Shown one piece after another: positions 9,311 to 34,730 of a DNA stretch of 64,000 bases. This DNA is from Dehalococcoidia bacterium (GTDB lineage Bacteria; Chloroflexota; Dehalococcoidia; DSTF01; WHTK01). Both the position numbers and the translations under genes were made by a program. Below the pieces are notes generated by a model, which was not told the origin of the DNA, did not search any database, and worked only from the letters and a program-made list of their open reading frames with translations. Location: assembly GCA_965247485.1 (NCBI GenBank), contig OZ252017.1, positions 837,664 to 901,663 on the forward strand, read 5' to 3'. Each line of letters begins with the position of its first letter. Positions within the stretch are counted from its first letter, which is position 1.

Positions 9311-10564
9311 TCATTCGTACCTAAGCGCCTCAATCGGCCGCAGCTTTGCTGCCGGGCGAGCCGGATAAAGCCCAAAGAAAACCCCGATTCCGGCAGCGAC
9401 AGCAAAAGCCATCAGTACCGATGTCCACGACACCACCGTCTGCACGTCCTCTCCCAACCCCGCGATGTCGCGGCCGTCAATAAAGGTCGCTGCCCCCACG
9501 CCGACCAAAATTCCGGCGACTCCACCGATCACCGTCACAGTGAGTGCCTCGGTTAGAAACTGCATCAAGATGTCGCTTTCGCGAGCGCCGACCGCCTTGC
9601 GTATGCCGATCTCCCGCGTCCGCTCGGTCACCGAGACCAGCATGATGTTCATGATCCCGATGCCTCCCACCAGCAGCGAAATACCAGCGATGCTGCCCAG
9701 CAGTACCGTCATCGTCTCGCTGACCTCATTCACCGCCGCCGCGATGTCCTCCTGGCTTTCGATAATCACGTCGGACTCGACAACTTGATGCTGGTCTCGG
9801 AGCAAAAGATCGATCGAGGTCTTCGCCTCGTCGATCTCGCCTTTGTCGGCAACCTGAACCGTGATTTGACTGACAATCGAAGAGTTGCCGGCCCCACGAA
9901 TCGACTGGATTTGGTTTTGGACCGTGGAAATTGGCAGGAAAATCTGGTCGTCGAGGCTGTTTTCGGAGGTGCCCCCCTTGGCTTCAAGGACGCCAACAAC
10001 CCGGACAGTGATCACCAGCCGGCCCAAACCCAGGCGAATCTGCTCCCCGAGAGGACTGGTATCAGGGAATAACTGCTCAGCCACGCTGCTGCCAAGAACC
10101 GCAACCCTGCTGCGCTGGTCGACGTCGGAAACGGATATGAAGGCACCCTCTGCCACTTGCAGCTCATAAGCTTCTGCATAGTCAGCCGTTACCCCAGCGG
10201 CCCTAGTAAAGGTATTCTGGCCGCCACCGCTGACCTGGAGGGGAATCCGGACCTCAGGCGCCACAACCACGGCCTCCGGCAGAAAGGCCAGAATCGCCTC
10301 GGCATCCTCCATCGACAGCGTTTGAGCCGAGCCGGCACCACCCGAAACACCGGCCTGAGTGGATGACCCGGGCCGCACAAAAACCAGGTTGGAGCCCAGG
10401 CCCTCAATCCGGTCCGTAACCGCCTTTTGCGACCCTTGGCCAACCGCCATCAGAGCGATAACTGCCCCAGCTCCGATGACGATGCCCAGCATGGTCAGCA
10501 GAGCCCGCATCTTGTTGGCGATTAGCGCCTCGATCGCGACTTGAACGGCATCCAGGAAGCTCAT
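9311..10564 (-). CDS. MacB/FtsX-family ABC transporter permease
   Basis: MacB_PCD periplasmic domain plus FtsX C-terminal 4 TM; N-terminus [31 protein letters not shown] typical of MacB/LolC/E permeases. Confidence 0.85.
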
Positions 10565-17796: not shown

Positions 17797-17870
17797 GCGG
17801 CCAAGGTGTTGTGGTGGCATTCGTCCCTCCCACGGATGAGGCGGGGGTTCAATTCCCCCTGGCCGCTCCA
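17797..17870 (+). tRNA. tRNA, probably tRNA-Gly (anticodon CCC), 74 nt with encoded CCA; integration target of the downstream island
   Basis: Acceptor GCGGCCA/TGGCCGC, anticodon stem CGTCC/GGATG with loop CTCCCAC, T-arm GGGGG-TTCAATT-CCCCC, discriminator T, CCA; D-stem is weak (GTGT/GCAT), hence moderate confidence. Confidence 0.55.
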
Positions 17871-17871
17871 G
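17847..17871. repeat. attL core: 25-bp direct repeat GTTCAATTCCCCCTGGCCGCTCCAG (tRNA 3' end), identical copy at 30205-30229
   Basis: Exact 25/25 match between the two positions. Confidence 0.7.
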
Positions 17872-17897
17872 TCTTTTGCTTCGGTTTTGTATCTAAA

Positions 17898-17919
17898 AGA
17901 GGCCCGTGACAGGGCCTCT
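17898..17919 (-). terminator. perfect 8-bp stem-loop (AGAGGCCC-GTGACA-GGGCCTCT) between tRNA and integrase stop; possible integrase terminator (weak T-tract)
   Basis: Inverted repeat read directly; followed on minus strand by TTTAGAT. Confidence 0.3.
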
Positions 17920-17947
17920 CTAGGGTTCTGACCGCCTATCTGACCGC

Positions 17948-19075
17948 CTAACCGTGAAAAAGCTTATCCATGACGCTTACAGCTTGCTCCTGGGCGCCCT
18001 CGATCACGTGAGCGTAAATGCGCAATGTAGTCGAGATGTCGCTGTGGCCGAGCAGCTCCGAAACCACCTTGACCGGGACACCCTGAGAGAGCAGAACGGT
18101 CGCCGCGGTGTGTCTCAAATCGTGAAATCTCATTCGTGGTAGGCCTGCCTTGTCAAGTAACGGATGCAGCCCGCGGCTTAGGACGTGGCTATTGTCTAGG
18201 GGCTTGCCGAGCGCGTTTGTGAATGCGAGCCCGTATTCTTTCCACGCGGCGCCGGCAAGTTGGCGCTGACTGGGTTGATTAAGTCGATGGGTTTCTAGGG
18301 CCTCGCAAGCGGTTGCCGATAGCCAAACTGTGCGGCGTGACTTCTGAGTCTTCGGCTGGCCAAACAGAGGCTCGCCACCTCTCACTGTGGTCAACGTGCG
18401 GCTCACCTGAACCCGTTGGCGCTCGGTGTCTATGTCGCTCCACCGCAAAGCTTGGAGCTCGCCGAGTCGAAGACCTGACGTTAGTGCGAGGACAAAGAAC
18501 GCCTCAAGGGGATGACCTCTCGCGGCCTCGAGAAGCTGACGGGCATCCTCCGGGCCCAGGTGTCTTTGCTCGCCAGTGCTGCGCCGCGGCGGCGTGACGA
18601 GCGATGCGACATTTCGCCCAACAAGGCCCAGGCGCTCGGCATCACGCAAGGCGACATGGAGAACGCCATGACAATGCGCCACGGTGGTTGCACTGACTCG
18701 CCTTCCAATGGAGGCATAGGCTGCTCGCAAATCGGCCGGCTGAAGCTTGGAAAGGACGCGCCTTCCGAGTGCTGGCCCAAGATGTAGACGGCAAAGTGTG
18801 TTGTAGCGGCGCCACGTTTCCGGCCGTAAATCGCCCTGCTTGCCCTCTAGCCAGCTCGACAAGTACGCGCCAACCAAGAGTTTGTCACCTAGCAACGGGA
18901 GATTATCGTCCTGGCGCTTCTGGGCGTCCCGGAGCTTTTTGGAGACCTCAATGCGAGTCTTGCCGAATAGTGACCGGCGCCGCCGTTTTCCCGTGCTGGG
19001 CAGCGTTAGAGTGGCCTCCCAGCGGCCGTCTGCACGGAGACGGATGCTGCCTTCGCCCTTACCTCTCCGAGTCAT
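17948..19075 (-). CDS. int: tyrosine-type site-specific integrase
   Basis: C-terminal catalytic region HDLRHTAATVLLSQGVPVKVVSELLGHSDISTTLRIYAHV (R..H..R..Y); adjacent to tRNA and att repeat. Confidence 0.9.
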   Translation of the reverse strand: MTRRGKGEGSIRLRADGRWEATLTLPSTGKRRRRSLFGKTRIEVSKKLRDAQKRQDDNLPLLGDKLLVGAYLSSWLEGKQGDLRPETWRRYNTLCRLHLGPALGRRVLSKLQPADLRAAYASIGRRVSATTVAHCHGVLHVALRDAERLGLVGRNVASLVTPPRRSTGEQRHLGPEDARQLLEAARGHPLEAFFVLALTSGLRLGELQALRWSDIDTERQRVQVSRTLTTVRGGEPLFGQPKTQKSRRTVWLSATACEALETHRLNQPSQRQLAGAAWKEYGLAFTNALGKPLDNSHVLSRGLHPLLDKAGLPRMRFHDLRHTAATVLLSQGVPVKVVSELLGHSDISTTLRIYAHVIEGAQEQAVSVMDKLFHG

Positions 19076-19077
19076 CG

Positions 19078-19848
19078 TTAGCCTCCCTTTTTAATCATGG
19101 CAAGACGTGCCGCTATGTCATCTACATAGACCCCTCTAGGGGCCATTTTCCGGAGCCAGGAGTGAACAGGGCCCATTAACTCTGCGCCATATTTGATGTG
19201 TATAATCTCCGGATCTAGGATGTCTTCGTAAGTAAGTTGGGTGTCGGCTGTCTTTGGCTGGTAAGGGAAGGATTTCTCGCCAGACTGCGGCGGCCAAGTG
19301 CCACGAAACTCTTGGTGGACGCGAGCGTATGTTTCGTCGTCACGCCATAGAGCCCACCCCAAATATGCCTCCAAAGTCCGGCGGTCGGTCTCAGAAGCCC
19401 GCTCTGGCCTGCGCTCCCAAAACGCGAGGTCGACCGCCATCCACATACGGCTTTGGGGGCTGGCGTCGGGGGCAGCCTGCGTAACACGCCAAAACCAAAG
19501 CATGACCGGCAACAAAGGCCGTTTCAAACGATCTCCGATTGGGTTTAGTTCCCTTGCCAGATCGAAAAAGGCAGAGCTTGCTTCCCATGGTAAGGATCCG
19601 TCATCACTGAACGACTCGGGCCAGGTGACCACCTCTAGCCATCGACGTTCAGGGTTTGGTATCCGGGCCTCTCGGATGATGTCACTGACCGCACGAAGGC
19701 TGGGAGTCTTCTTACCCTTATACCCTTCCAGTCCCTCGGCGATCTTTGCTTGAATTAGCCGGCGCATAACCACGGCTCCCATCTGGCTATGGTTAACTGC
19801 GTTCACCTCAATCGTCCTACGGATTTGTGGATCGATTCTTGCTGGCAT
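19078..19848 (-). CDS. hypothetical protein, leftward gene next to int (position of a satellite/prophage master regulator)
   Basis: 256-aa ORF, Trp/Arg-rich, no recognisable motif. Confidence 0.45.
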   Translation of the reverse strand: MPARIDPQIRRTIEVNAVNHSQMGAVVMRRLIQAKIAEGLEGYKGKKTPSLRAVSDIIREARIPNPERRWLEVVTWPESFSDDGSLPWEASSAFFDLARELNPIGDRLKRPLLPVMLWFWRVTQAAPDASPQSRMWMAVDLAFWERRPERASETDRRTLEAYLGWALWRDDETYARVHQEFRGTWPPQSGEKSFPYQPKTADTQLTYEDILDPEIIHIKYGAELMGPVHSWLRKMAPRGVYVDDIAARLAMIKKGG

Positions 19849-19997
19849 TTGCCTACAAATCCTCCCTAGCTGCTATGTCCTTGGATTTTACTTCCATAGC
19901 ATTGCCATTCTGGCGCTTGACGACTGCCATACCAGGATTGATTCTACATCTCAGCAGAGGGCTGTCAAGGGATGGCAACCGCAAGAGGAGGCACCAA

Positions 19998-20192
19998 ATG
20001 GTAACCGAGACCACACGGCTAGCTTATCGAAGGATGGAAGCTGCAAAGGCCATCGATGTCAGCACCGACACCCTGGACAGATTGATTCAACGCGGAGAGA
20101 TCAAGTCTTTCAAGATCGGCGCCGCCATCTGCATCAGCGCTGACGAGCTCACACGTTTCATCAGAGAGCGCGAAGCGGCCGGCGGCGGCTAG
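19998..20192 (+). CDS. excisionase/AlpA-like helix-turn-helix DNA-binding protein
   Basis: AKAIDVSTDTLDRLIQRGEIKSFKIG HTH; RBS GGAGG upstream of ATG 19998; divergent from int. Confidence 0.55.
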   Translation: MVTETTRLAYRRMEAAKAIDVSTDTLDRLIQRGEIKSFKIGAAICISADELTRFIREREAAGGG

Positions 20193-20198
20193 CGCGAA

Positions 20199-20456
20199 GT
20201 GACGACCGCTGCCCATCATCCCAACTTCGTAGAACGCGACGAGATCTTGCGCCTACATCCAGGGCCGTGGAAAAAGAGCGGCGCCTGGCAGATGGCCTTC
20301 TGCCCAGTTCTAGCGCACGGCGACGGCCAGAAGCATGGCGGCAGGGGTGGCGAGTCCCTCGGGCTCTCAGACAAGGGCGTGCTCTCCTGCTTTGCTGGCT
20401 GTGCCTTTCGTGATGTCATGGCAGCGCTGCGGGCGGGTGATCAGGCGATTCGATGA
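20199..20456 (+). CDS. primase CHC2-type zinc-finger domain protein (separate small ORF preceding Toprim gene)
   Basis: CPVLAHGDGQKH...SCFAGC resembles the DnaG CHC2 zinc-binding motif; GTG start; stop overlaps next start. Confidence 0.5.
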   Translation: MTTAAHHPNFVERDEILRLHPGPWKKSGAWQMAFCPVLAHGDGQKHGGRGGESLGLSDKGVLSCFAGCAFRDVMAALRAGDQAIR

Positions 20457-22288
20457 CACCTTTGGGCGCTAAGCCGACGAACTGGTATGGCGAGACGATC
20501 TCGGGCTGGTATGGATATCAAGATGAAGCTGGCTCGGTTCGGTTTGACGTTGCGCGAACGCCCAGCAAAGAGTTTCCTGTCTATCACCCGGAAGGCACGA
20601 AATGGGCCAAGGGGTACGGCGGTCGGCGAATCCTCTACCGACTCCCCGAACTATTAGAGGCAGATCCAGCCGAGCCGGTTCTCTTATGCGAGGGCGAGAA
20701 GGACGCTGACCGGGCCCGGGCCGAAGGGTTCACCGCCACCACTACGCCAGGCGGCGCCTGGGCGGCTGATCATTGCGACCTCGGGCCGCTCGTTAATAGA
20801 ACTGTCGCGATCCTCCCAGACAACGACGAAGGGGGTGAAAACTATAGCTCTACGTTAACGGGCCTACTCGTTGGCAAGGCCGCCTCGATCAAGGTCATTG
20901 ACCTAACCGGCGTTCCGCCAAAAGGCGACGTTAGTGATTGGTTCGACGCCGGGCATGGCTCTGAGGAACTGAAGCAGTTGATCGGGCAACAAACGCCGGT
21001 AACACCCGTTTCTCCTCCGCAGCCTTCCACCTCGCAATCAACTACGTTGCTATTCCGGACGCCGCGACAAATCGCCCAACTCACACCCGAAACCCCAGAC
21101 GCGGTGGTCGCAGGCATCCTTGTAAGAGGCGCAATGACGGAAGTCAGCGCCAAAATCAAGACCGGCAAGACGACCTTCATGGGGCACTTAATCGCTGCTG
21201 TTCGCTCTGGGCACGACTTCTTAGGCTTGAAAACAAAACGCACAGCTTTTGTTGTGCTTACTGAGGAGCGAATTCAAACAATGCGAGCGGCCCTAGGGCG
21301 CGTCGGCCTTCTAGATGCGGACGATGTCCACATTCTCTCTCTGTACGACGCTGGCAAGCTCCCATGGCCCGACATAGTTGCCGAGGCGGAGAAATATGCC
21401 AAGGAGGTTGGCGCCGGCGTTATCGTCGTGGATACGCTTACTCGCTGGGCGCGCATTCCAAGCGATGATGAGAACAGCTCTGGCGCCGCGGCTGAAGCTA
21501 TTGAGCCCTTGGAGGCGGCAGCTGCTCATGGGTTCGCAATCCTTGTTATCCGTCACGACCGAAAAAGCGGAGGTGAGCTAGGAGACAGCGCTCGCGGGTC
21601 GTCAGCATTCGGTGGTGCTGCCGACATCATCCTCAACCTTCGCAGAGCGAATACCGAAGGCCATGAAAGTCGCCGGATATTACTAGGCGTCGGGCGCTTT
21701 GATGACGTTCCGTCTCAACTGACTATCGAGCTTCAAGCCGGCCGCTACGTAGTTCTTGGCGACACTGCCGCCATAGAACGTGACGAAACAAAGAGCCGAC
21801 TCCTGGACGTTTTGCCAGGTGTAAGCGGAGACCCTATTCGAGAGGATGATGTTCTTGCGCGGCTTGGCACTGAAGCAAAGAGATCAACTGTTCGGCGCGC
21901 CCTCAATGACCTGGTCGCGAATGCGTCCGTTGAACGAGTCTCCGGACTTGGGACGCGAGGCACTGCGAAAGGCTATCGCTTAGGCTCCCGTTACTCTACT
22001 GACCAGCCTATAGAGATGGACCCTGGTCAGAAGACTAACTCTCACGTTCCTGAAAGTAACGTGGATTACTTTAGTGACCAGCCCCATACCCCTGGTCAGA
22101 AACATAGTCCCCTACTCAACGGAAACTCTACTGACCAGCCCCCATTTCCTATAGGTGGTCAGTTGGGTAAGAACGACCTTTGCACAGAGCTTGGGTGTGA
22201 ACGTCCCGGTACTCACGCCAATCCAACCGATGGTGAGCTCGTTTGTCTGTATCACTTCACGCGGATGACCGCTGAGGTTGCGTCGTGA
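20453..22288 (+). CDS. Toprim-domain DNA primase fused to RecA-like (AAA_25/RepA-type) helicase domain; repeat-rich C-terminal tail
   Basis: Toprim motifs LCEGEKDADRA and ILPDNDEGG; Walker A KTGKTT, Walker B VIVVDTL; C-terminal STDQP/PGQK repeats and a Cys-rich tail. Confidence 0.8.
   Translation: MTPLGAKPTNWYGETISGWYGYQDEAGSVRFDVARTPSKEFPVYHPEGTKWAKGYGGRRILYRLPELLEADPAEPVLLCEGEKDADRARAEGFTATTTPGGAWAADHCDLGPLVNRTVAILPDNDEGGENYSSTLTGLLVGKAASIKVIDLTGVPPKGDVSDWFDAGHGSEELKQLIGQQTPVTPVSPPQPSTSQSTTLLFRTPRQIAQLTPETPDAVVAGILVRGAMTEVSAKIKTGKTTFMGHLIAAVRSGHDFLGLKTKRTAFVVLTEERIQTMRAALGRVGLLDADDVHILSLYDAGKLPWPDIVAEAEKYAKEVGAGVIVVDTLTRWARIPSDDENSSGAAAEAIEPLEAAAAHGFAILVIRHDRKSGGELGDSARGSSAFGGAADIILNLRRANTEGHESRRILLGVGRFDDVPSQLTIELQAGRYVVLGDTAAIERDETKSRLLDVLPGVSGDPIREDDVLARLGTEAKRSTVRRALNDLVANASVERVSGLGTRGTAKGYRLGSRYSTDQPIEMDPGQKTNSHVPESNVDYFSDQPHTPGQKHSPLLNGNSTDQPPFPIGGQLGKNDLCTELGCERPGTHANPTDGELVCLYHFTRMTAEVAS
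21994..22165. repeat. three imperfect copies of palindromic unit CT(A/G)(C/T)TGACCAGCC-N7-14-CCTGGTCAGAA inside the primase-helicase gene 3' end (candidate replication-origin iterons)
   Basis: CTGACCAG / CTGGTCAG inverted arms at 21998-22030, 22075-22100, 22131-22162. Confidence 0.5.
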
Positions 22289-22938
22289 ACCGCCAGGAGA
22301 GGCGCCGGGCGGGCAAAGCCGACAAGGGCCTCACAGAGAAGCTACGCGCTGAGCTACCCGGTATTCTCGGCTGGGCTGTGCGTGGGTGCCTTGAATGGCA
22401 ACGGCGTGGCCTCGAGCCGCCGGCCTCTATACAAGCAGCGACCGACGACTATCGCACTGAGAGCGATCCTTTAGCGGGCTTCCTCGCTGAGTACTGCGTT
22501 CTTGGTGACGGGCTGGCATCACCAGCCAACCCGCTGTACAAGGCCTACGCCCGGTGGGCGGCTGATCAAGGTTATCGCGACCGCGAATTGCTCACGAGCA
22601 CGGCATTTGGGCGGCTGGCGGGGAGTCGTTTCGACAGTGGCCGGAGCCGCGCCGGGAAGGTTTATTACGGCCTAGGTCTCTTAAATGCACAGCAAAGTGA
22701 TCTAAAGGTGACGGGTTTCACGTCTGACGACCCGTCACTTCCACTAAACCTTCCTATGTATTCACCTACGCGAGATTTGTTAGAAAACTCGTCACAACCC
22801 GTCACACCCGTCACAGAGGAAAACGAGCTCTGCACTCAGGCCAATTGCGACCTTCCGGGCACCCACGCCGAGCCAACTACTGGCGAACTTGTTTGCCTTG
22901 CCCACTTCCAGAAATTGGCTTCAGAGGTGACGTCGTGA
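22285..22938 (+). CDS. phage/plasmid primase P4-family C-terminal domain protein (D5/PriCT-like)
   Basis: Conserved pattern GILGWAVRGCLEWQRRGL...TDDYRTESDPLAGFLAEYC; ends with same Cys-rich tail as preceding gene. Confidence 0.6.
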   Translation: MNRQERRRAGKADKGLTEKLRAELPGILGWAVRGCLEWQRRGLEPPASIQAATDDYRTESDPLAGFLAEYCVLGDGLASPANPLYKAYARWAADQGYRDRELLTSTAFGRLAGSRFDSGRSRAGKVYYGLGLLNAQQSDLKVTGFTSDDPSLPLNLPMYSPTRDLLENSSQPVTPVTEENELCTQANCDLPGTHAEPTTGELVCLAHFQKLASEVTS

Positions 22939-23068
22939 ACCGTGAAAATCGGTGGCTCATGATGAGGGGGAAGGGGCCCTCGGATACTTCTCAGATATGG
23001 AAACGAACACCGCTACCCTACCACTCCTCGCACGCGGTCAGGTTTCAACCAAGGGGGGTTCAGCCTTA

Positions 23069-23545
23069 ATGGGTTCTCGCGGACCTTCGCCAAAGCCCAC
23101 AGCACTAAAGGCCTTGCATGGCACCGCTCGTCGCGACCGGAGCAATCCAAGCGAGCCTCAGCCGCAGGTCACCGCCGTTTCTTGTCCCGCGTTCCTAGAC
23201 TCCGCGGCGAAGGCAGAGTGGCGCCGGCTCATCCCGCACCTGGTCAAGTTGAAACTCATGAGCGATCTAGACCGGGGCCTCCTCGCTGCCTATTGCGCGG
23301 CCTGGAGTCGCTGGCGGAAGGCGGAGCTTGCGATCCAGAAGTTCGGTGAGGTCTTAGCGACGCCAAGCGGGTATATGCAGAAGAACCCTCACGTGACGAT
23401 TGCCAACGAATCAATCAGAACGCTCGAGAAACTGGCGGGGCACTTCGGTCTGTCGCCATCCACAAGGACGCGGGTTAGCGCCACACCAGAGGAGCAGGAG
23501 GACGATCCATTCGATGAATGGGAGCAGCGAAGGAGGTCGAGGTGA
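23069..23545 (+). CDS. terS: phage terminase small subunit, P27 family
   Basis: GPSPKPTALKALHGT...AKAEWRRLIPHLVKLKLMSDLDRGLLAAYCAAWSRW...NPHVTIANESIRTLEKLAGHFGLSPSTRTR matches the P27 TerS pattern; ATG 23069 preferred. Confidence 0.8.
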   Translation: MGSRGPSPKPTALKALHGTARRDRSNPSEPQPQVTAVSCPAFLDSAAKAEWRRLIPHLVKLKLMSDLDRGLLAAYCAAWSRWRKAELAIQKFGEVLATPSGYMQKNPHVTIANESIRTLEKLAGHFGLSPSTRTRVSATPEEQEDDPFDEWEQRRRSR

Positions 23546-23937
23546 TAAGGGCCATGATCGAACCGCTAACCGAAACCCCACCGCCGCCGGACTTCATCGG
23601 TAACCGAGATGCGGAGTGGGTGCGCGACTGGCACACACTCGCCGGAAAGCTCGTCGCATCGCGCACCTTGGCCGAGCTGGACCTAGTAATGCTCTGCCTG
23701 CTTATCGACGCTTGGCAGATCTACAGCCGCGGCCTTCGAGACATCGCCCGTTATCCAGAGCCAGAAGGCCTAAGGGAATCAATCGAAGAATGGCGGCTTC
23801 ACGCTCGCCAAGCCGCCAGTGAGTTTTTTCTTATACCTGAATCGCGAATCAATTTAGGAATCGTGGCCGACGCCGGCGGAGACAGCGAGTTATCGGCCCT
23901 TTTTCGAGAGAACAACGACGAATCAATCACGCAATAG
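23518..23937 (+). CDS. hypothetical protein with weak TerS-like helical pattern (second small-terminase-like/packaging-interference candidate)
   Basis: DAEWVRDWHTLAGKLVASRTLAELDLVMLCLLIDAWQIY mirrors the P27 A..EW..L...L..L.D...L...AW spacing. Confidence 0.35.
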   Translation: MGAAKEVEVIRAMIEPLTETPPPPDFIGNRDAEWVRDWHTLAGKLVASRTLAELDLVMLCLLIDAWQIYSRGLRDIARYPEPEGLRESIEEWRLHARQAASEFFLIPESRINLGIVADAGGDSELSALFRENNDESITQ

Positions 23938-24689
23938 CGGGCCGTAGGCCCGCCCAGTCAAGGGAGGAAAGACGATGGCAGCCACAGCGATTCAGGAAAT
24001 TAGCAAAAACGCGAAAGTCGACTACTGGCAGAACGATCATCCCTACGAGGTGGTTCGCATCGAGCCGTGAATTCCTGGACGAAATTGACTCATGATTATT
24101 CCTCGAGCATTTGAGGGCACATGGCTTGAGCCAGAGGAGCCTGCCTGGCGACCTGGAGACCCTTTCCCTGCGCCGTGGATACGTGAGGAATCGGAGAGAT
24201 GGTTAAGAAACTAATCAGCGAGAGCACCTCGCCAAGTTGAAGATGGTGACTGTTTTTGGTACGCCGAAAGCCCATAACTGGACAACTTACGCTCTGTTTA
24301 GAGTGAGTCTACAGCTGTGAATCGCCCGCCGCTTAGTAGCGTAGGCTTGGAAGGCAGATCGCACCGTGCGCTGTAGCAGCGTATCTAGGACCGTGAGCGA
24401 GAGCTGTCCAGTTATGGTGTGAAAGTTCTTGGGATTTTCTCCTACGCGATGCGGCGCCGTCCGGCGACCATGCTAAGAAGCCATGCAGTCAACGAAACCC
24501 TTGCCGACCCGCAGTTTGTCCGCGCCAATCCCAGGCTATCAATGCCTTAATCTCCACGGTCGGGACCTAAACTGTCCAAATTCTTACGGCCCTCGACCTG
24601 AACAGCGATGGCGCTGAGATTGACGAAGAGGACCGCCAATAGGCCACAGCAAGTCAGATTCGTGGTCGTGTATGAGGCGGGAAAGGATG

Positions 24690-24810
24690 GTTTGCCGGAA
24701 GGAGGCTCGAACCCCCAAGGCCTCGCGGGCGGCGGATTTTAAGTCCGCAGACGATAGGTTACTGACGTGTACTACCGTCCGCCCACGATGCGATTTGGTA
24801 GGCTTTCGGC
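24690..24810 (-). pseudogene. tRNA-Leu(TAA)-like remnant with ~30-nt insertion in the D-arm region (pseudo-tRNA)
   Basis: On minus strand: anticodon arm GCGGA-CTTAAAA-TCCGC, long variable arm, T-arm GGGGG-TTCGAGC-CTCCT, acceptor GCCGAAA/TTCCGGC with one mismatch; total about 120 nt, too long for an intact tRNA. Confidence 0.3.
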
Positions 24811-24981
24811 CGCCTACGTCCTGCGTCGGTTGAGGTTGTCCGTCCCGGTTGCTGTCTAATTTGCTGTCATTGCTCAATGCCGATGGCCCGCTACCGCTTG
24901 CCACCCACTTCATTCGGAGCGTCGCAAGTAGGTCGTTGTCGTTGCGACATTGCCTAGTATCAGCTGATCTCGTTCAGAAAG

Positions 24982-26034
24982 ATGCCGTACACGACAATGA
25001 TGAGAAGGCGGGGACGATACGGAGTCCCAATGCAGACGTACGGGTCGATCATCCCAGGCGGTCCAACCCTGGCTCGTCTCCTCCCAGAGGGAGCGCAGGA
25101 AGGCAGGGAGGAGCCACGACTATCACGTGAGGCGAAGGCGCGCCTCAGGGCTGTTGAGTGGCACAAGGATCACGGCGAGAAGGTGAGTCTGACGGCAAGA
25201 CGCTTTGGACGCAGCCGCTCAACCCTTTACTAGTGGCTAGAGTGCTACCGGCTCCGGGGTCCGCGGGGTCTGGAAGACCGCAGCCATAGGCCACACCAGG
25301 TCCGCAAGCCGACTTGGAGCCTAGAGTTCGAAGCAGCGGTGCTACGCCTGCGCCAAGACAATCCCGTCTGGGGCAAAGACAAGCTACAGCCGATCCTCAG
25401 ACGCGAAGGGGTCACTATCTCGGTCTCGATTGTGGGCCGCATCCTTAGCCGGCTCAGACGCCAAGGCAAACTGGGGCCTGCGAGTCTGAAGGACCCTTGC
25501 ATCGTCTCTCGGCCTCAGGTGCGGCCCTATGCCGTGCGTGAGCCCAAAGACTACGTCGTCAAGGCGCCGGGAGATCTGGTTCGGTGGACAGCGCCGACGT
25601 GCGCTGGACCGGTATTACCTGGCGCGTGATATTGTCAGCCGCTGGGACGTCTTGGGTGTCTACGGCCGCGCTACCGCCGGCACGGCGCGCGACTTCCTCG
25701 ATACGGTCATCGAGCGTATGCCGGGTCCGGTGAAGGCGATCCAGGTGGACGGTGGCTCTGAGTTCAGGGCCGAGTTTGAGGCCGCCTGTGAGCAGAAGGG
25801 GCTGCGGCTTTTTGTGCTGCCACCATGCTCCCCCAGGCTCAACGGCTGCGTGGAACGAGCCCAGCGCACCCACAAAGAGGAGTTTACCAGTTGGTTGACC
25901 CACCCGACTCGCTCAGCCAACTGAGAACCCAGCTGCTCCAACAGGAGCAGCGTTACAATACTTACCGGCCCCATCAGGCCCTTGGCCATCTAACGCCGCA
26001 AGAGTGGCTGCTAGCATTCACCGAGAGGAAGTAA
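24982..26034 (+). mobile_element. degraded IS481-family insertion sequence (transposase ORF split into at least 4 frames)
   Basis: HTH piece (24982-25233), LRLRQDNPVWGKDKLQPILRREG piece, DDE/rve core (DGGSEFRAEF...LPPCSPRLNGCVERAQRTHKEEF) and C-terminal YNTYRPHQALGHLTPQEWL piece in different frames. Confidence 0.7.
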
Positions 26035-26102
26035 GTGTCCGGCATCTACTGGACGAGTACAAGCACTTGCGCCTTCCAAACCGTCGCCCTACACTAATTG
26101 CA

Positions 26103-26129
26103 TTAGCACTCGCTTTAGCCGAGTGCTAA
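26103..26129. promoter_or_regulatory. CIRCE operator (HrcA binding site), perfect consensus TTAGCACTC-N9-GAGTGCTAA
   Basis: TTAGCACTC (26103-26111), 9-nt spacer, GAGTGCTAA (26121-26129); 40 bp upstream of groES. Confidence 0.85.
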
Positions 26130-26170
26130 ACTACGATAAAGCCTGAATTTATCCCCACGAGGAGGTCAGA

Positions 26171-26467
26171 ATAGCTTCGAGACTAATCCCTCTTGCCGAC
26201 AAGCTTGTTCTTAGGCCGATTGTCCAGGAGGAAGTCCTCTCCAGCGGAATCGTCATTCCAGACACCGCCAAAGAAAAGCCTAACCAGAGCGAAATCATCG
26301 CCGTGGGTCCAGGAAAGCGCGACGAGGACGGCAAAGTGATCATCCCGGAGGTCGTGATTGGTGACCGAGTGCTTTACGCCAAGTACACCGGCCAAGAGAT
26401 CAAGGTAGAAAATGAAGAGCTAATCGTTCTAGCGGAGAAAGATATCCTCTGCAAGGTCGAAGTCTAA
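26171..26467 (+). CDS. groES: co-chaperonin GroES (10 kDa chaperonin); apparent ATA start codon 5 nt after GGAGG
   Basis: Translation (I)ASRLIPLADKLVLRPIVQEE...GIVIPDTAKEKPNQSEIIAVGPGKRDEDGKVIIPEVVIGDRVLYAKYTGQEIKVENEELIVLAEKDILCKVEV; not in ORF track because no ATG/GTG/TTG start. Confidence 0.75.
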   Translation: MASRLIPLADKLVLRPIVQEEVLSSGIVIPDTAKEKPNQSEIIAVGPGKRDEDGKVIIPEVVIGDRVLYAKYTGQEIKVENEELIVLAEKDILCKVEV

Positions 26468-26491
26468 GTCCGCCCGCGTTAGGAGGGTCTA

Positions 26492-26551
26492 TTGGCAAAA
26501 CAAATCGTTTTTGATGAAGAGGCGCGTCGCTCACCGAAGGGTGAATCGTGA
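26492..26551 (+). pseudogene. groEL: groEL 5' remnant: 19 codons (L/M)AKQIVFDEEARRS... then unrelated sequence and stop
   Basis: AKQIVFDEEARR is the conserved GroEL N-terminus; RBS AGGAGGG upstream; TTG start; reading frame terminates at 26549-26551. Confidence 0.6.
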
Positions 26552-26769
26552 GTAATCACACAGGCCTTCAGTACGAAGGATACATTCAAGAAACAGGGTT
26601 CGGGATAAGTGAACTAGTACCGAGCGCCAACGAAACCATGGAAGACATTGTGTCGGCTTTAAAGGCTGCTGCAGAACGCCTCAAGCTTCACGTCCTTATT
26701 TGGGTGGATGAAGACAGGATTCTGCTTGCGTGTCCGCCTCCTGCCTTTGCCGGCATGCAGAGAAGTTAG
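26548..26769 (+). CDS. hypothetical small protein (73 aa), lower-GC cargo
   Basis: ORF only; non-repetitive composition. Confidence 0.25.
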   Translation: MSNHTGLQYEGYIQETGFGISELVPSANETMEDIVSALKAAAERLKLHVLIWVDEDRILLACPPPAFAGMQRS

Positions 26770-27728
26770 TAATCCTCAACGCGCCACCACACCTAAAGCC
26801 GAAAGGAGAAGAGGGCCTCCACGAGATGGCCCGCAGGATACGTTTTCGAAGCTGACGATTCGCGAGGCGTTCTGCGGACCTCTAGGAACCGGCAGGTTTT
26901 GCAACGATTTGGAAAATGAGGCTGGTTGCACTAAGACTTCGGCGCCAGACGACTTTCTTGCCTTGGCTCGATGCAGCAAGGGATGTCCGTCTCTTAATCG
27001 CTCGTTGAGAATCATCCTCGCTCAGGTCGATGGCTCCCCAATCGCCAACTTTAAGGGAACCTAAATATTCCAAGTACTCAGTGAGATCCTGGAGGTTAGT
27101 ATGCCTTCGCGTAAGATGACTAACTTCTGCATCAGACAGCTTCCTAAAATTTGGCATTGAAGTATCCCTCCAAGCTAATTCGTGGGTGCTCCACAGGAGC
27201 CCTATTGGATGCTAATCATAGGCCAAATTAGACGTCAAGCGTATACTCATTTTACTCCTGCTCTTTATTTCGACTATATTGTTATCGTAAGGGAATATGC
27301 ATTAGGCAGCAAGTGGGAAGCTCTCGCCGTGACAATGCATGATGCCCGCTCGTGGCACGAGACGCATAACGCCTAATGGCCCCTCCAGATTCCAAGTCAG
27401 GACCGAAACTGAAACAGCCGGTGGGGATCCAAGAGATCGGTCGGCGGCTGGCATTTGGGCCCCCGGGATACTTCCTAGGCTCGCTATCTGAGTGCGGGTG
27501 TTGGCCCGTAAAGAACATTCGCTAGCATCTGACCGCCACTGGTTTCTTCGAACCTCGTCAGACCGTTTGACTTGGAATCTTGAACCAACCTCTCAAACCA
27601 TCCAAGATATTGTCAGCAGAGTACGAGTCTTAGTCTTCGCTAACTGCATTCGCCAATGAGCTAAAAGAGAGATTCTTTGGTAGACTAATTCGAACCGTAT
27701 ATAGCCAATTGCAAAGACCGCTACCTAT

Positions 27729-31537: not shown

Positions 31538-32437
31538 CTAACCCTCAGTCAAGCTCAAGTTGCCCAGTTTTTCTAGGGTTCTAACCAGGGCCTGAGTGCC
31601 CTCTTCACCGCGGCCTTCCGCCTCCAACCCCGCGAATAGCTGGTGCACCAGCGACGTGCCCGGCAAAGGCTGCGTGCTCTCGCGTGCCACCTCTAGTGCC
31701 AGCCTGAGGTCTTTTTGTTGATGCTGAACTTTGAACCCCGGCCGGAAGTCACCCTCCAGCATGCGTGGCGCCAGATTCGTCAGCTGCCAGGATGCCGCGG
31801 CACCATTCTCGACCGCCTCCAGCATCGTCCCAGGAGCAACGCCGGCCTTCTTCGCCAGCATTAATGCCTCGCAGACAGCCAGATTGGTCACCGACACCAG
31901 CACCTGATTGCAAAGTTTGACCGTCTGACCCGAACCAGAAGGCCCGCAATAGGTAATCGTCTTACCCAACACCTCAAAAAGCTCGCGGCAACGCTCGAAC
32001 ACTTCCTGCTTGCCGCCGACCATGATTGTCAAGGTCGCGTTGATCGCTCCCGCCTCGCCGCCGGAGATCGGCGCGTCCAACATCTCGATACCCTGGGCCG
32101 CGTATCGCTCCGCAACCGACTGCGTAACCGCAGGCGAAATCGTCGACATGTCGATGTGAATCAATCCGGGCGCGGCGCCCTCGGCGATCCCCCCGTCACC
32201 CAAGGCAACCTGCTCTACGTCGGGCGAATCGCCAACCACCGTGAACACCACTTTGCTCTGCCGAGCCACATCGGCGGCAGACTCGCCTTCGCGAGCGCCT
32301 TCCTCGACCAGCGCATCAATCCCAGGCCGGCTGCGATTCCAAACCGTCAACTCATGCCCAGCCTTCAGCAAGTGCGTGGCCATCGGCCTGCCCATGATCC
32401 CCAACCCAACGAATCCCAATCTCATCGCCGGCCTCAC
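31538..32437 (-). CDS. NAD(P)-binding 3-hydroxyisobutyrate/2-hydroxy-3-oxopropionate reductase family dehydrogenase
   Basis: N-terminal Rossmann MRLGFVGLGIMGRPMATHLLKAGHELTVWNRS; 6PGDH-type NAD-binding. Confidence 0.8.
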   Translation of the reverse strand: MRPAMRLGFVGLGIMGRPMATHLLKAGHELTVWNRSRPGIDALVEEGAREGESAADVARQSKVVFTVVGDSPDVEQVALGDGGIAEGAAPGLIHIDMSTISPAVTQSVAERYAAQGIEMLDAPISGGEAGAINATLTIMVGGKQEVFERCRELFEVLGKTITYCGPSGSGQTVKLCNQVLVSVTNLAVCEALMLAKKAGVAPGTMLEAVENGAAASWQLTNLAPRMLEGDFRPGFKVQHQQKDLRLALEVARESTQPLPGTSLVHQLFAGLEAEGRGEEGTQALVRTLEKLGNLSLTEG

Positions 32438-32516: not shown

Positions 32517-32690
32517 TAAGCTCTCACAAGCACCCCTTTTACTGGGGTCTGGGTGTCCCCAGCTTTGGAAGTCCCCCAGTTCTAAAGCCAGCCCCGGCTT
32601 TCAAAGCCAACGCCCCGCAACCCCCTTTAGCGGGGTCTGGGGTGTCCCCAGCTTTAGAAGTCAATAGGTTCGCCAAAGCCACTGCTTTTC
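32517..32690. repeat. about 1.5 copies of the GGGGTGTCCCCA / CTTTCAAAGCCAGCGCCCCG repeat family (same family as 33915-34225)
   Basis: Shared strings ...ctttagcggggtctggggtgtccccagctttagaag... Confidence 0.6.
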
Positions 32691-33821
32691 GAATGCGACT
32701 TTTGCCCAATGCCAAATGATACTCGGCTGCCTTAGCTTGATGCGGCGCTCAGCGGCAAGAAAGTTTCCTTGCGCCAGGGCCGCGGCCCCAGCCCCAACCT
32801 CAAGGAAGCATTTGCCCTCACCATCGTACGGGTCCGGCGCTGGGCCCCCTCGAATCCGGAAGGCAATCTGCCTCGACGCCGCTTTTGCCTGATTCTCGGC
32901 GAAAACGCCTGCCTTTGGCAGCTTGAGCCCATCCGACAGCGTTATTGAGGTGATGTCACCTATGGCGAACACGTTCTCGTGCTGTGTCTCCAAGGTTGCG
33001 GAATCGACTGGTAACCAGCCACTCGAATCGAGCAAATCCGTTGCGCCAATCACCTCCGGAGCCTGATGCTCCGGCACAGCAATCAACAAATCAAACGGCA
33101 CCGGCTCAGCGTCGGCGAAATTGACCACGCGGCCGCGGGGGTCAACGCCGATCAAATTGCGGCCCATGTGGAGCTCGATTCCTTTGTGCGCCAATAAGCC
33201 GGAGATTTCCTCACCGACCCGCGGGCCGGCGACCGCCATCGGACGCTCCTCCGGCGTGTGAATCTCAATCTCCACCTTCTGACGCATTCGGCGGGCGTGG
33301 AAATGCTGCTCTATGAGCATCGCGGCCTCGTACGGCGCGGCCGGGCATTTAAAAGGAACCCCAGCAACCGCAATTACAACCCTGCCTCCGGCAAAATAGC
33401 GCAGACTGGCGGCAAGCCGCTCGGCGCCATCCAGGGTGTAGAAATTCTGCGCCGCTTCCGCCAAGCCAGGTTTCAGATCCAGCGTTGTATCCGCCCCCAA
33501 GGCCAGGATCAAGTAGTCGTATCGAATCTCACGGCTGTCCGCGCGAATCTGGCGGTTCGCAAGGTCAATCTCCCGGACCTCCGCGTTGACAAACTCAACC
33601 CCGTGACGCGCCAGTTGCCCTCTCTGCCTACTGATCTCCTTCGCCTTGCGATCGCCGGTCATGACCCACAGATAGGACGGCGGAAACGAAGCCACAGGAT
33701 CTCGATCGACTACAACGACGCGACACTGCGACCGCACCAAGCGTCGCATCTCCTTGGCCGCCGCTACGCCGCCAATACCGCAGCCAAGAATCAAAACAGT
33801 GGGCTCAGACAAACTCGTCAT
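32661..33821 (-). CDS. FAD-dependent pyridine nucleotide-disulfide oxidoreductase (NDH-2 / sulfide:quinone oxidoreductase-like)
   Basis: N-terminal FAD Rossmann VLILGCGIGGVAAAKE, second GxGxxG-like motif, 386 aa. Confidence 0.7.
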   Translation of the reverse strand: MTSLSEPTVLILGCGIGGVAAAKEMRRLVRSQCRVVVVDRDPVASFPPSYLWVMTGDRKAKEISRQRGQLARHGVEFVNAEVREIDLANRQIRADSREIRYDYLILALGADTTLDLKPGLAEAAQNFYTLDGAERLAASLRYFAGGRVVIAVAGVPFKCPAAPYEAAMLIEQHFHARRMRQKVEIEIHTPEERPMAVAGPRVGEEISGLLAHKGIELHMGRNLIGVDPRGRVVNFADAEPVPFDLLIAVPEHQAPEVIGATDLLDSSGWLPVDSATLETQHENVFAIGDITSITLSDGLKLPKAGVFAENQAKAASRQIAFRIRGGPAPDPYDGEGKCFLEVGAGAAALAQGNFLAAERRIKLRQPSIIWHWAKVAFEKQWLWRTY

Positions 33822-33914
33822 CTATCGACGAGTTTACCAGAAGCCCATCCGCGCTCTGATCGCGACCGACTAGTCAGGCCTGTACACACCCTCTCGACAG
33901 ACAAATCCCATGCC

Positions 33915-34225
33915 CTTCAAAGCCAGCGCCCCGTTACCCCCTTTACCGGGGTCTGGGGTGTCCCCCAACTTTCAAAGTCCGGTTTGGGGTGTCCCCAGTT
34001 CTAAAGCCAGCCCCCAGGTTTCAAAGCCAGCGCCCCGTTATCCCCTTTGGCGGGGTTTGGGGTGTCCCCAACCTTCAAAGTCCAGTTTGGGGTGTCCCCG
34101 GCTTTAGAAGCCTCCCCAATTTTCAAAGCCAGCGCCCTTTACCCCCTTTAGCGGGGTTTGGGGTGTCCCCAACTTTCAAAGCGTGTCCCCCCCCCAACTT
34201 TCAAAATCCCCCCGGGCATCAACAT
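33915..34225. repeat. tandem array: 3 copies of an about 105-bp unit (each with two GGGGTGTCCCC(A)ACTTTCAAAG sub-repeats) immediately upstream of the oxidoreductase gene
   Basis: Units at about 33915-34020, 34020-34125, 34125-34225; roughly 85-90 percent identity by eye. Confidence 0.7.
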
Positions 34226-34280: not shown

Positions 34281-34730
34281 ATGACCCACGAACACCACGA
34301 TGACGACCTCGACCACTATATGGATCATGAACTCCACCCTCGCCATTTCTTTGGCGTTCTGCCTGTCTTTCTCGTTGACGACATCGTGCAGACCGTCGAA
34401 TACTACCGTGACGTCCTCGGTTTTGAAGTCGACTTCCTTTATGGCACACCACCCGCCTACGCCAGCGTTTCGCGCGACGACGCGATCATCAATTTCAGCC
34501 GGTCTGAACCTTCCGGCCGCCGCAACAGCATCACCAACGCGGGCACCGGCAACGGCACAGACGCCTACATCGTCGTCAGCGACATTGATGAAATCTTTGA
34601 CGAAGTGAAGTCTCACGGCGCCAAAATCGTGACTAATCTGGTCAACCAGGATTACGGAATGCGCGAATTTCAGATCGAGGACTGCAACCAGTATCGTCTT
34701 GCCCTTGCCGAGGAAACCGATGAAATCTAG
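34281..34730 (+). CDS. glyoxalase/bleomycin-resistance (VOC) family protein with His/Asp-rich N-terminus
   Basis: VOC-fold pattern FGVLPVFLVDDIVQTVEYYRDVLGFEV ... DAYIVVSDIDEIFDEVKSHGAKIV; ATG 34281 with GGAGG RBS. Confidence 0.65.
   Translation: MTHEHHDDDLDHYMDHELHPRHFFGVLPVFLVDDIVQTVEYYRDVLGFEVDFLYGTPPAYASVSRDDAIINFSRSEPSGRRNSITNAGTGNGTDAYIVVSDIDEIFDEVKSHGAKIVTNLVNQDYGMREFQIEDCNQYRLALAEETDEI

Follow-up and report, generated by a model that had tools for sequence, protein, structure and literature searches.

Hypervariable tandem arrays on both sides of a sulfide:quinone oxidoreductase-like gene of a Dehalococcoidia bacterium are probably built from a truncated module of an interspersed hairpin repeat family of Chloroflexota

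We analysed a stretch of 64,000 nucleotides from a Dehalococcoidia bacterium (NCBI GenBank assembly GCA_965247485.1, contig OZ252017.1, positions 837,664 to 901,663; hereafter the window, whose coordinates are used unless a locus is named), in which two blocks of tandem repeats flank the gene of an FAD-dependent oxidoreductase. Homologues of the gene product carry the JGI name sulfide:quinone oxidoreductase (SQR). The blocks are probably hypervariable tandem arrays, i.e., minisatellites or variable-number tandem repeats (VNTRs), of a truncated module of an interspersed repeat family of Chloroflexota, carried as near-neutral passengers. Much work has been done on the small interspersed repeats of Proteobacteria, Firmicutes and mycobacteria, but no description of such a family from Chloroflexota, a large and mostly uncultured phylum, was found in the searchable literature.

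Results

A preliminary description of this DNA had reported the two repeat blocks on either side of the minus-strand gene. The gene lies as placed there, and both blocks were recovered by TRF, an ungapped repeat search and a covariance model (Table 1). TRF detected one strong array in the window, at 33916-34181 (period 104, 2.6 copies, 87% matches, score 398), so that the suspected periodicity is real. Tandem units upstream of SQR therefore stand, as 2.6 copies followed by a degenerate tail to about 34215 rather than as three copies of about 105 bp reaching 34225. The downstream block had been drawn to 32690, across the 3′ end of the gene; this was about 30 nt too far, since its last base, 32660, is the base before the SQR stop codon (32661-32663), and it does not overlap the coding sequence. 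Both arrays are in direct orientation and have units in common, and no inverted pairs were found among the window units by the repeat search. Specifically, a 47-nt core has five in-register copies (starting at 32525, 32614, 33930, 34034 and 34135) and a CCCCAAnTTTCAAAG sub-motif has seven, the last at 34209. The 11-mer GGGGTGTCCCC, allowing one mismatch, occurs 7 times in the window versus 1.3 expected, every time inside the two blocks, and the covariance model matched only 32530-32576, 32618-32665, 33934-33981, 34038-34085 and 34139-34186.

The repeated module is about 40 nt long and consists of a linker (TTTRGCGGGG), a G+C hairpin of 6-7 bp (nnGGGG-TGT-CCCCnn) and a tail (TTTCAA(A)G). In the window, the full module reads TTTRGCGGGG, (T/C)(T/C)TGGGG-TGT-CCCCA(A/G) and nTTTCAAAG, and the stem of the core hairpin reaches 6 bp through its closing pairs T-A and Y-R. 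The 104-nt unit is a composite of one full module, a hairpin-only sub-repeat, a tail-only sub-repeat and a species-specific stretch, CCAGCGCCCCGTTA, which is able to pair with the linker; the earlier picture of two hairpin sub-repeats per unit is refined accordingly. As had been suspected, the Pro/Gly-rich open reading frames (ORFs) called across the repeats are spurious, because none of the unit lengths (104, 73 and 40 nt) is divisible by 3; the arrays are non-coding. A promoter and terminator scan found neither a sigma-70-like promoter nor a terminator-like site (with a T-run) within them.

The arrays gain and lose whole units within the species and are hypervariable in the manner of VNTRs. 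Contigs from different samples, 13-15 in number (13 for the glyoxalase) and several of them 3-3.4 Mb long, encode glyoxalase and pterin-dehydratase proteins identical to those of the window; in 11 of these conspecific contigs, the genes beside the arrays match their counterparts in the window at 99.5-99.9% identity. The spacer between SQR and the downstream gene, which encodes a 3-hydroxyisobutyrate-dehydrogenase-like protein (HIBADH), has alleles of 131, 219-220, 394 (containing an N gap) and 438 nt, and the SQR-glyoxalase spacer has alleles of 357 (two different deletion alleles), 455-461 and 531-533 nt. These alleles differ by whole units, of about 73, 89 and 101 nt, and the number of units ranges from 0.5 to 4 among strains more than 99.5% identical. 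The comparison of related strains proposed earlier thus bears out a hotspot of recombination or slippage. The extra unit in the 531-533-nt alleles is a 73-nt unit of the type found between HIBADH and SQR, which suggests that the two arrays exchange units. Contigs from short reads break off within the arrays. The arrays are not assembly artefacts, since more than 10 assemblies made independently, long-read contigs of at least 3 Mb among them, contain them. SQR itself is present in exactly one copy in all 11 conspecific contigs. Note that a poly-C tract at the end of the upstream array varies from C8 to C14 in conspecific long-read assemblies; either the homopolymer between the divergent genes truly varies in length or the long reads misread it.

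We also compared the same locus in related species. The exact SQR protein of the window matched no record, so the locus was reached via homologues and the glyoxalase and pterin-dehydratase proteins; SQR homologues led to three syntenic loci. In L005 (99% identity), the contig ends inside the upstream array. L006 has the gene order of the window, with an SQR 86% identical in protein and about 80% in nucleotide sequence, and no repeat is present in either of its intergenic regions (121 and 142 nt); a solitary element copy lies 4.5 kb away, inside a called ORF. In L007 (84% identity, 3.59-Mb contig), the element occupies both intergenic regions on the strand sense to SQR, and the upstream array consists of a 40-nt unit repeated 6.8 times (95% matches). 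By contrast, the window copies are antisense to SQR, and the HIBADH-SQR array is antisense to both of those genes. In addition, L008 carries two elements upstream of dnaK that are lacking in three relatives whose DnaK is 94-96% identical. The lack of arrays in L006, their opposite orientation in L007 and the absence of the dnaK elements from the relatives of L008 show that the arrays are not tied to the oxidoreductase gene. The significance that had been attached to the flanking of a single gene is therefore not supported, and a dedicated regulatory array, also proposed earlier, finds no support, given that copy number, orientation and presence vary and that promoter- and terminator-like sites are missing from the arrays.

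Two further observations concern the dnaK region. At the element position of L008, these three relatives carry a different palindromic repeat (GTCATCCTGAGCG...CGCTCAGGATGAC; L080-L082, at about 9700-9900). Between the two elements of L008 (10200-10240) lies CTTGAGC-N8-GCTCAAG, which adjoins a MerR/HspR-type gene and which we take to resemble an HspR operator (HAIR).

The repeat is dispersed and not confined to this locus, as the preliminary description had considered. An exact scan for CCCCTTTNNCGGGGTYTGGGGTGTCCCC in one genome per species matched four records, all Chloroflexota or Dehalococcoidia metagenome-assembled genomes, and a slightly looser core pattern matched 56 metagenome loci and none of the viral contigs. 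At most of these loci, the common 30 nt form the 3′ half of a longer element of about 70-130 nt, laid out as GGGGAGTCCAGAGGGGC-loop-GCCCCTTTGGCGGGG-nnn-GGGGTGTCCCC-nnn and followed by a pyrimidine-rich tail and often by a third hairpin or an GGGTGGGTGGGTGGGA tract; its 5′ end is a second hairpin, CCAGAGGGGC-loop-GCCCCTTTGG. The members of another group resemble the window units, with TTTAGCGGGG, the hairpin and a TTTCAA tail but without the 5′ hairpin, and are often in tandem (L040, L044, L045 and L051/L058). Covariance models built from both groups detected additional diverged copies in the loci already selected, e.g., three each in L003, L016 and L025. Extra copies number about 1 per 20 kb in these pattern-selected loci, a density with an upward bias, as three unselected loci of Ktedonobacteraceae (65.6 kb) contain none. 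The SufB (L013) and DnaK (L008) proteins encoded beside elements are 91-95% identical to proteins named Ktedonobacteraceae; the family therefore covers at least two classes of Chloroflexota. Copies are mostly intergenic, some lie inside ORFs and some beside unrelated housekeeping genes, and many start no more than about 20 nt from a co-oriented gene's stop codon. Between co-directional genes, 16 copies are sense and 6 antisense, a weak trend given that longest-ORF calls are noisy in G+C-rich contigs. At the gathering score, Rfam 15 matched only tRNA and rRNA in the window and 20 loci with full-length elements, and the best sub-threshold match on the arrays, searched at E up to 10, had E = 3.2. 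No description of the element was found in the searchable literature: a literal search with the core sequence returned unrelated primer and eukaryotic matches only, and keyword searches on Chloroflexota repeat families returned nothing relevant.

Some copies have peculiar surroundings. Two are in frame inside called ORFs (L003:5106-6479, CobD-like, and L006:15368-16408) and recall the Rickettsia palindromic elements; compared with the solved structure PDB 1lc5, the CobD-like protein has an insertion of about 43 residues that contains the element, as fits a mobile element. Several full-length members stand between inverted repeats specific to their locus (L014:3644-3830, with 40-nt arms, L012:989-1105 and L055:2532-2646; also L049 and L020), which reflects either insertion into pre-existing palindromes, again in keeping with a mobile element, or a variable closing helix. 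A CCTGAGC...GTCGAAGG segment, related to the palindromic repeat upstream of dnaK in L080-L082, is inserted within some elements of L001 and L025. Unrelated tandem repeats are found in other Chloroflexota loci, namely L002:3957-4242 (period 123), L010:4950-5140 (72), L050:2321-2503 (62) and L030:213-777 (about 200 nt), and such repeats may be common in the phylum.

Compensatory changes on one strand keep the hairpins intact. In an alignment of 38 distinct full elements, 94% of the cells of the two proposed helices are standard pairs, compared with 40-73% when the partners are slid by 1-3 columns, and the observed covariation was reached by none of 500 shuffles. At the outer end of the core hairpin, the pair is U-A in 15, G-C in 10, C-G in 9 and A-U in 1 of the elements, and in the window-type alignment the closing pair of that hairpin is C-G (9), U-A (9) or A-U (3). 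In the 5′ hairpin, two pairs switch (G-C/A-U and G-C/C-G) and three vary only between A-U and G.U (27, 9 and 5 G.U cells), with almost no unpaired cells. Variation to G.U but not to A.C, which the opposite strand would not allow, identifies the GGGGTGTCCCC strand as the one that folds. Note that the exact-core search pattern itself fixed the GGGG/CCCC and linker columns, which are invariant, but neither the closing pairs nor any part of the 5′ hairpin. In the linker TTTRGCGGGG and the tail CTTTCAAAG, it is the sequence that is conserved and not the pairing. The hairpin-forming capacity noticed earlier is thus real and covaries across the family. The folding comparison suggested with it gave a divided result: on the plus strand, one unit and the arrays fold better than shuffled sequences (z -2.8 to -3.1), whereas single modules do not (z -0.2 to -0.9).

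We then compared the family with known repeat classes. The REP and BIME sequences of Proteobacteria are GTAG- and CGTC-tagged palindromes mobilised by RAYT transposases (PMC3733652, PMC3116915). The present family resembles REPs as a short G+C-rich intergenic hairpin with probably many dispersed copies, occasional intragenic copies and a patchy occurrence among relatives; its palindrome is a mostly intergenic hairpin of 6-7 bp with covarying closing pairs, present in several copies per few kb in L003, L016 and L025. It differs from them in that the window units are head-to-tail and not inverted REPIN doublets, in that a conserved single-stranded linker and a second hairpin make it a composite element, in its host phylum, and in that no RAYT gene was seen in the fetched loci. 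No GTAG/CTAC or CGTC/GACG column is present in the alignments A2 and A3, where the stems are flanked by TTTRGCGGGG(n2-4) on the 5′ side and by Ann-TTTCAA or a pyrimidine tract on the 3′ side.

The arrays conform to what is called a bacterial minisatellite or VNTR, with the TRF period and copy number given above, four length alleles at one array and three to four at the other. Among such loci, the MIRU-VNTRs of Mycobacterium tuberculosis, as Supply et al. are said to have described, are tandem units of 40-100 bp between the genes of clusters, at several loci, polymorphic in copy number between strains that are otherwise nearly identical; reportedly, short ORFs of these units overlap the flanking stop and start codons and the unit lengths keep the frame. 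Here, too, the tandem units are intergenic and polymorphic in number between near-identical strains, but they are built around a covarying hairpin, their lengths of 40, 73 and 104 nt are not divisible by 3, and the SQR stop codon, though adjacent to the array, is not supplied by it. The pneumococcal BOX element consists of boxA, a variable number of boxB and boxC, and forms stable hairpins. The family shares with it the modular composition and the tandem reiteration of one internal module in variable number; the sequence and the phylum are unrelated, and the reiterated module here also occurs alone, without the 5′ module.

Like miniature transposable elements with inverted repeats (MITEs), the family is small, non-coding, dispersed and polymorphic in presence and absence, and in one Ktedonobacteraceae subgroup the copies end in inverted repeats of 10 nt (L055, and in weaker form L028 and L047). 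On the other hand, the window units have no such termini, the inverted repeats around full-length copies differ from locus to locus, no inverted termini are shared by the family, and neither a clear target-site duplication nor a related full-length insertion sequence was found, so that a MITE in the strict sense, which had been suggested, is not upheld. The arrays are not CRISPR arrays either, in agreement with the preliminary description, since the sequence between the cores repeats with the unit, leaving no unique spacers, and cas genes are missing from the surrounding 5 kb. The preliminary description had recognised no REP, BOX, ERIC or MITE family in the repeats, and no Rfam family is matched. 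The family looks like a REP/BOX/MIRU-like interspersed repeat that differs, in the defining features compared, from the GTAG/CGTC REPs, MITEs, CRISPRs and MIRUs proper. As a separate matter, a sigma-54 promoter, a hammerhead core, an integron attC site and a CRISPR repeat were dropped by eye against consensus sequences, the spacing or the core residues being unfit.

The features of the window are collected in Table 1. A perfect 9-bp inverted repeat (AAACTCGTC / GACGAGTTT, 7-nt loop) at 33811-33835 spans the start codon of the SQR-like gene and could occlude translation initiation in its mRNA. Away from the arrays, the segment 17797-27500 begins with a tRNA gene (17797-17867), continues with phage-like genes, is gene-poor with a G+C content down to 0.50, and looks like a decayed integrated element.

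Table 1. Arrays, modules and genes discussed in the text, in window coordinates
Feature	Position	Strand	Basis or remark
Downstream array, HIBADH-SQR intergenic region (IGR1), about 1.5 units	32517-32660	+	covariance model R1, 25.9 and 63 bits
Downstream array, degenerate module	32530-32576	+	
Downstream array, complete module	32618-32660	+	
Upstream array, SQR-glyoxalase divergent intergenic region (IGR2), 104-nt unit x 2.6	33916-34181	+	TRF; R1, 49-63 bits
Upstream array, full modules (TTTRGCGGGG + hairpin + TTTCAAAG)	33934-33981, 34038-34085, 34139-34186	+	
Hairpin-only sub-repeat (GTTTGGGGTGTCCCCAG + TTCTAAAGCC)	33983-34013 (within unit 1); second copy 34086-34116	+	repeat search
Degenerate tail of upstream array, poly-C + final CCCCAACTTTCAAAA motif	34182-34215	+	repeat search
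Poly-C tract (C9) in tail of upstream array	34187-34195	+	
Core hairpin GGGG-TGT-CCCC	32639-32649; further exact copies at 33955, 33986, 34059, 34089, 34160	+	
Core hairpin copy with one mismatch	32550	+	
FAD-dependent oxidoreductase, SQR-like (flanked gene, outside the repeat)	32661-33821	-	Pyr_redox_2 6e-21, FCSD_central
HIBADH flanking gene	31538-32437	-	ORF and domain match
Glyoxalase/VOC-family flanking gene, divergent from SQR	34281-34730	+	ORF and domain match
Pox_D5-like gene	22285-22938		within 17797-27500
Terminase small subunit	22952-23545		within 17797-27500
Broken DDE transposase	25339-25924		within 17797-27500

Discussion

If the arrays are tandem forms of a dispersed module, as we consider probable, an element copy would have been seeded independently in each of the two intergenic regions by a trans-acting mechanism. 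By analogy with REP/RAYT or IS200/IS605, spread to new sites might depend on a trans-acting function that recognises the single-stranded hairpin with its flanking sequence; this is the weakest step of the scheme. From a seeded copy, replication slippage or unequal recombination between units would then produce arrays that grow and shrink, and units may pass from one array to the other. The arrays are probably near-neutral passengers, and their effects on the SQR and glyoxalase genes, such as altered promoter spacing or extra hairpins in the intercistronic RNA, would be incidental.

Several results weigh against this explanation. Within the 64-kb window, the covariance model found no family copy outside the two arrays. 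Loci totalling about 0.39 Mb yielded no candidate for a mobilising gene, whether transposase, RAYT or other; the recurrent families in all-against-all ORF clustering were only of the housekeeping kind, namely ABC transporters, SufB/C, CoA-transferases, a PIN toxin and DnaK. Both intergenic regions beside SQR are occupied in two species that are about 80% identical in nucleotide sequence, which could mean an old insertion followed by rearrangement, or a site preference. No clear target-site duplication emerged when the window and L007 were compared with the empty site of L006, a comparison in which the identity of about 80% blurs the junctions; because no such duplication is visible, we infer mobility only from presence, absence and orientation. 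Furthermore, the invariance of the core is partly an effect of ascertainment, and the covariation, the G.U pairing, the sense bias and the placement after stop codons are equally expected of a functional RNA element.

It is conceivable, if rather doubtful, that the 70-130-nt composite, with its 5′ hairpin, GGCGGGG linker, GGGG-TGT-CCCC hairpin and tail or third hairpin, is an undescribed strand-specific structured element common to the distant classes Dehalococcoidia and Ktedonobacteria, either a new type of non-autonomous mobile element moved as a single strand or a multi-copy functional RNA motif, of which the window arrays would be the truncated, tandem-prone module. If mobile, such a composite would favour the 3′ ends of genes and pre-existing palindromes. 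The main rival to neutral arrays is that the hairpins act in cis as RNA, whether they stabilise a 3′-UTR (untranslated region) or intercistronic RNA against exonucleases, serve as terminator or attenuator, or form a 5′-UTR structure, and thereby tune SQR, HIBADH or the glyoxalase. Compensatory changes and G.U-only variation do point to one folding strand, the plus-strand unit and arrays fold better than shuffles, and starts close behind co-oriented stop codons are frequent, with sense copies prevailing between co-directional genes. Nevertheless, we regard this as unlikely: the HIBADH-SQR array is antisense to both genes in the window and sense in L007, L006 does without either array, and unit number ranges widely among nearly identical strains. 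Moreover, terminator-like sites with a T-run are missing from the arrays, the elements upstream of dnaK are not retained at orthologous positions, and single modules fold no better than shuffles.

Recognition of the units as double-stranded DNA, by a transcription factor, a nucleoid-associated protein or a partition or replication iteron binder, would account for the conservation of linker and tail as sequence, for the near-palindromic CTTTnAAAG and GGGGTGTCCCC, and for the position of one array between divergent genes. It would not require the stem-extension pairs to covary, as they do, and is hard to reconcile with sites whose number, spacing (40, 73 or 104 nt) and orientation vary freely, with copies within ORFs and next to unrelated housekeeping genes, and with the lack of a linked regulator gene; we therefore judge it improbable. 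Still less can be said for an SQR cassette that is excised or duplicated by recombination between the arrays. Although both arrays are direct and share units, with an IGR1-type unit present in long IGR2 alleles, SQR stands in the same gene order without repeats in L006 and with inverted ones in L007, never exceeds one copy in the conspecific contigs, and has no integrase or recombinase gene adjacent to it. Finally, the regular spacing of hairpin-bearing units might recall a degenerate or orphan CRISPR array, or an assembly artefact. The CCCC-loop-GGGG hairpin resembles type I-E CRISPR repeats in shape only. We give this explanation almost no credence, because the inter-core sequence is itself repeated, the neighbours within 5 kb are metabolic and glycosyltransferase genes and not cas genes, and independent assemblies, long-read contigs among them, agree on the arrays.

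Conclusions

The repeats on both sides of the SQR-like gene should not be taken as a regulatory device of that gene. For the phylum, the family defines a covarying hairpin motif, and it accounts for broken contigs and falsely called Pro/Gly-rich ORFs in metagenome assemblies. As its arrays change in length between near-identical strains, the family could supply strain-level VNTR markers for uncultured populations.

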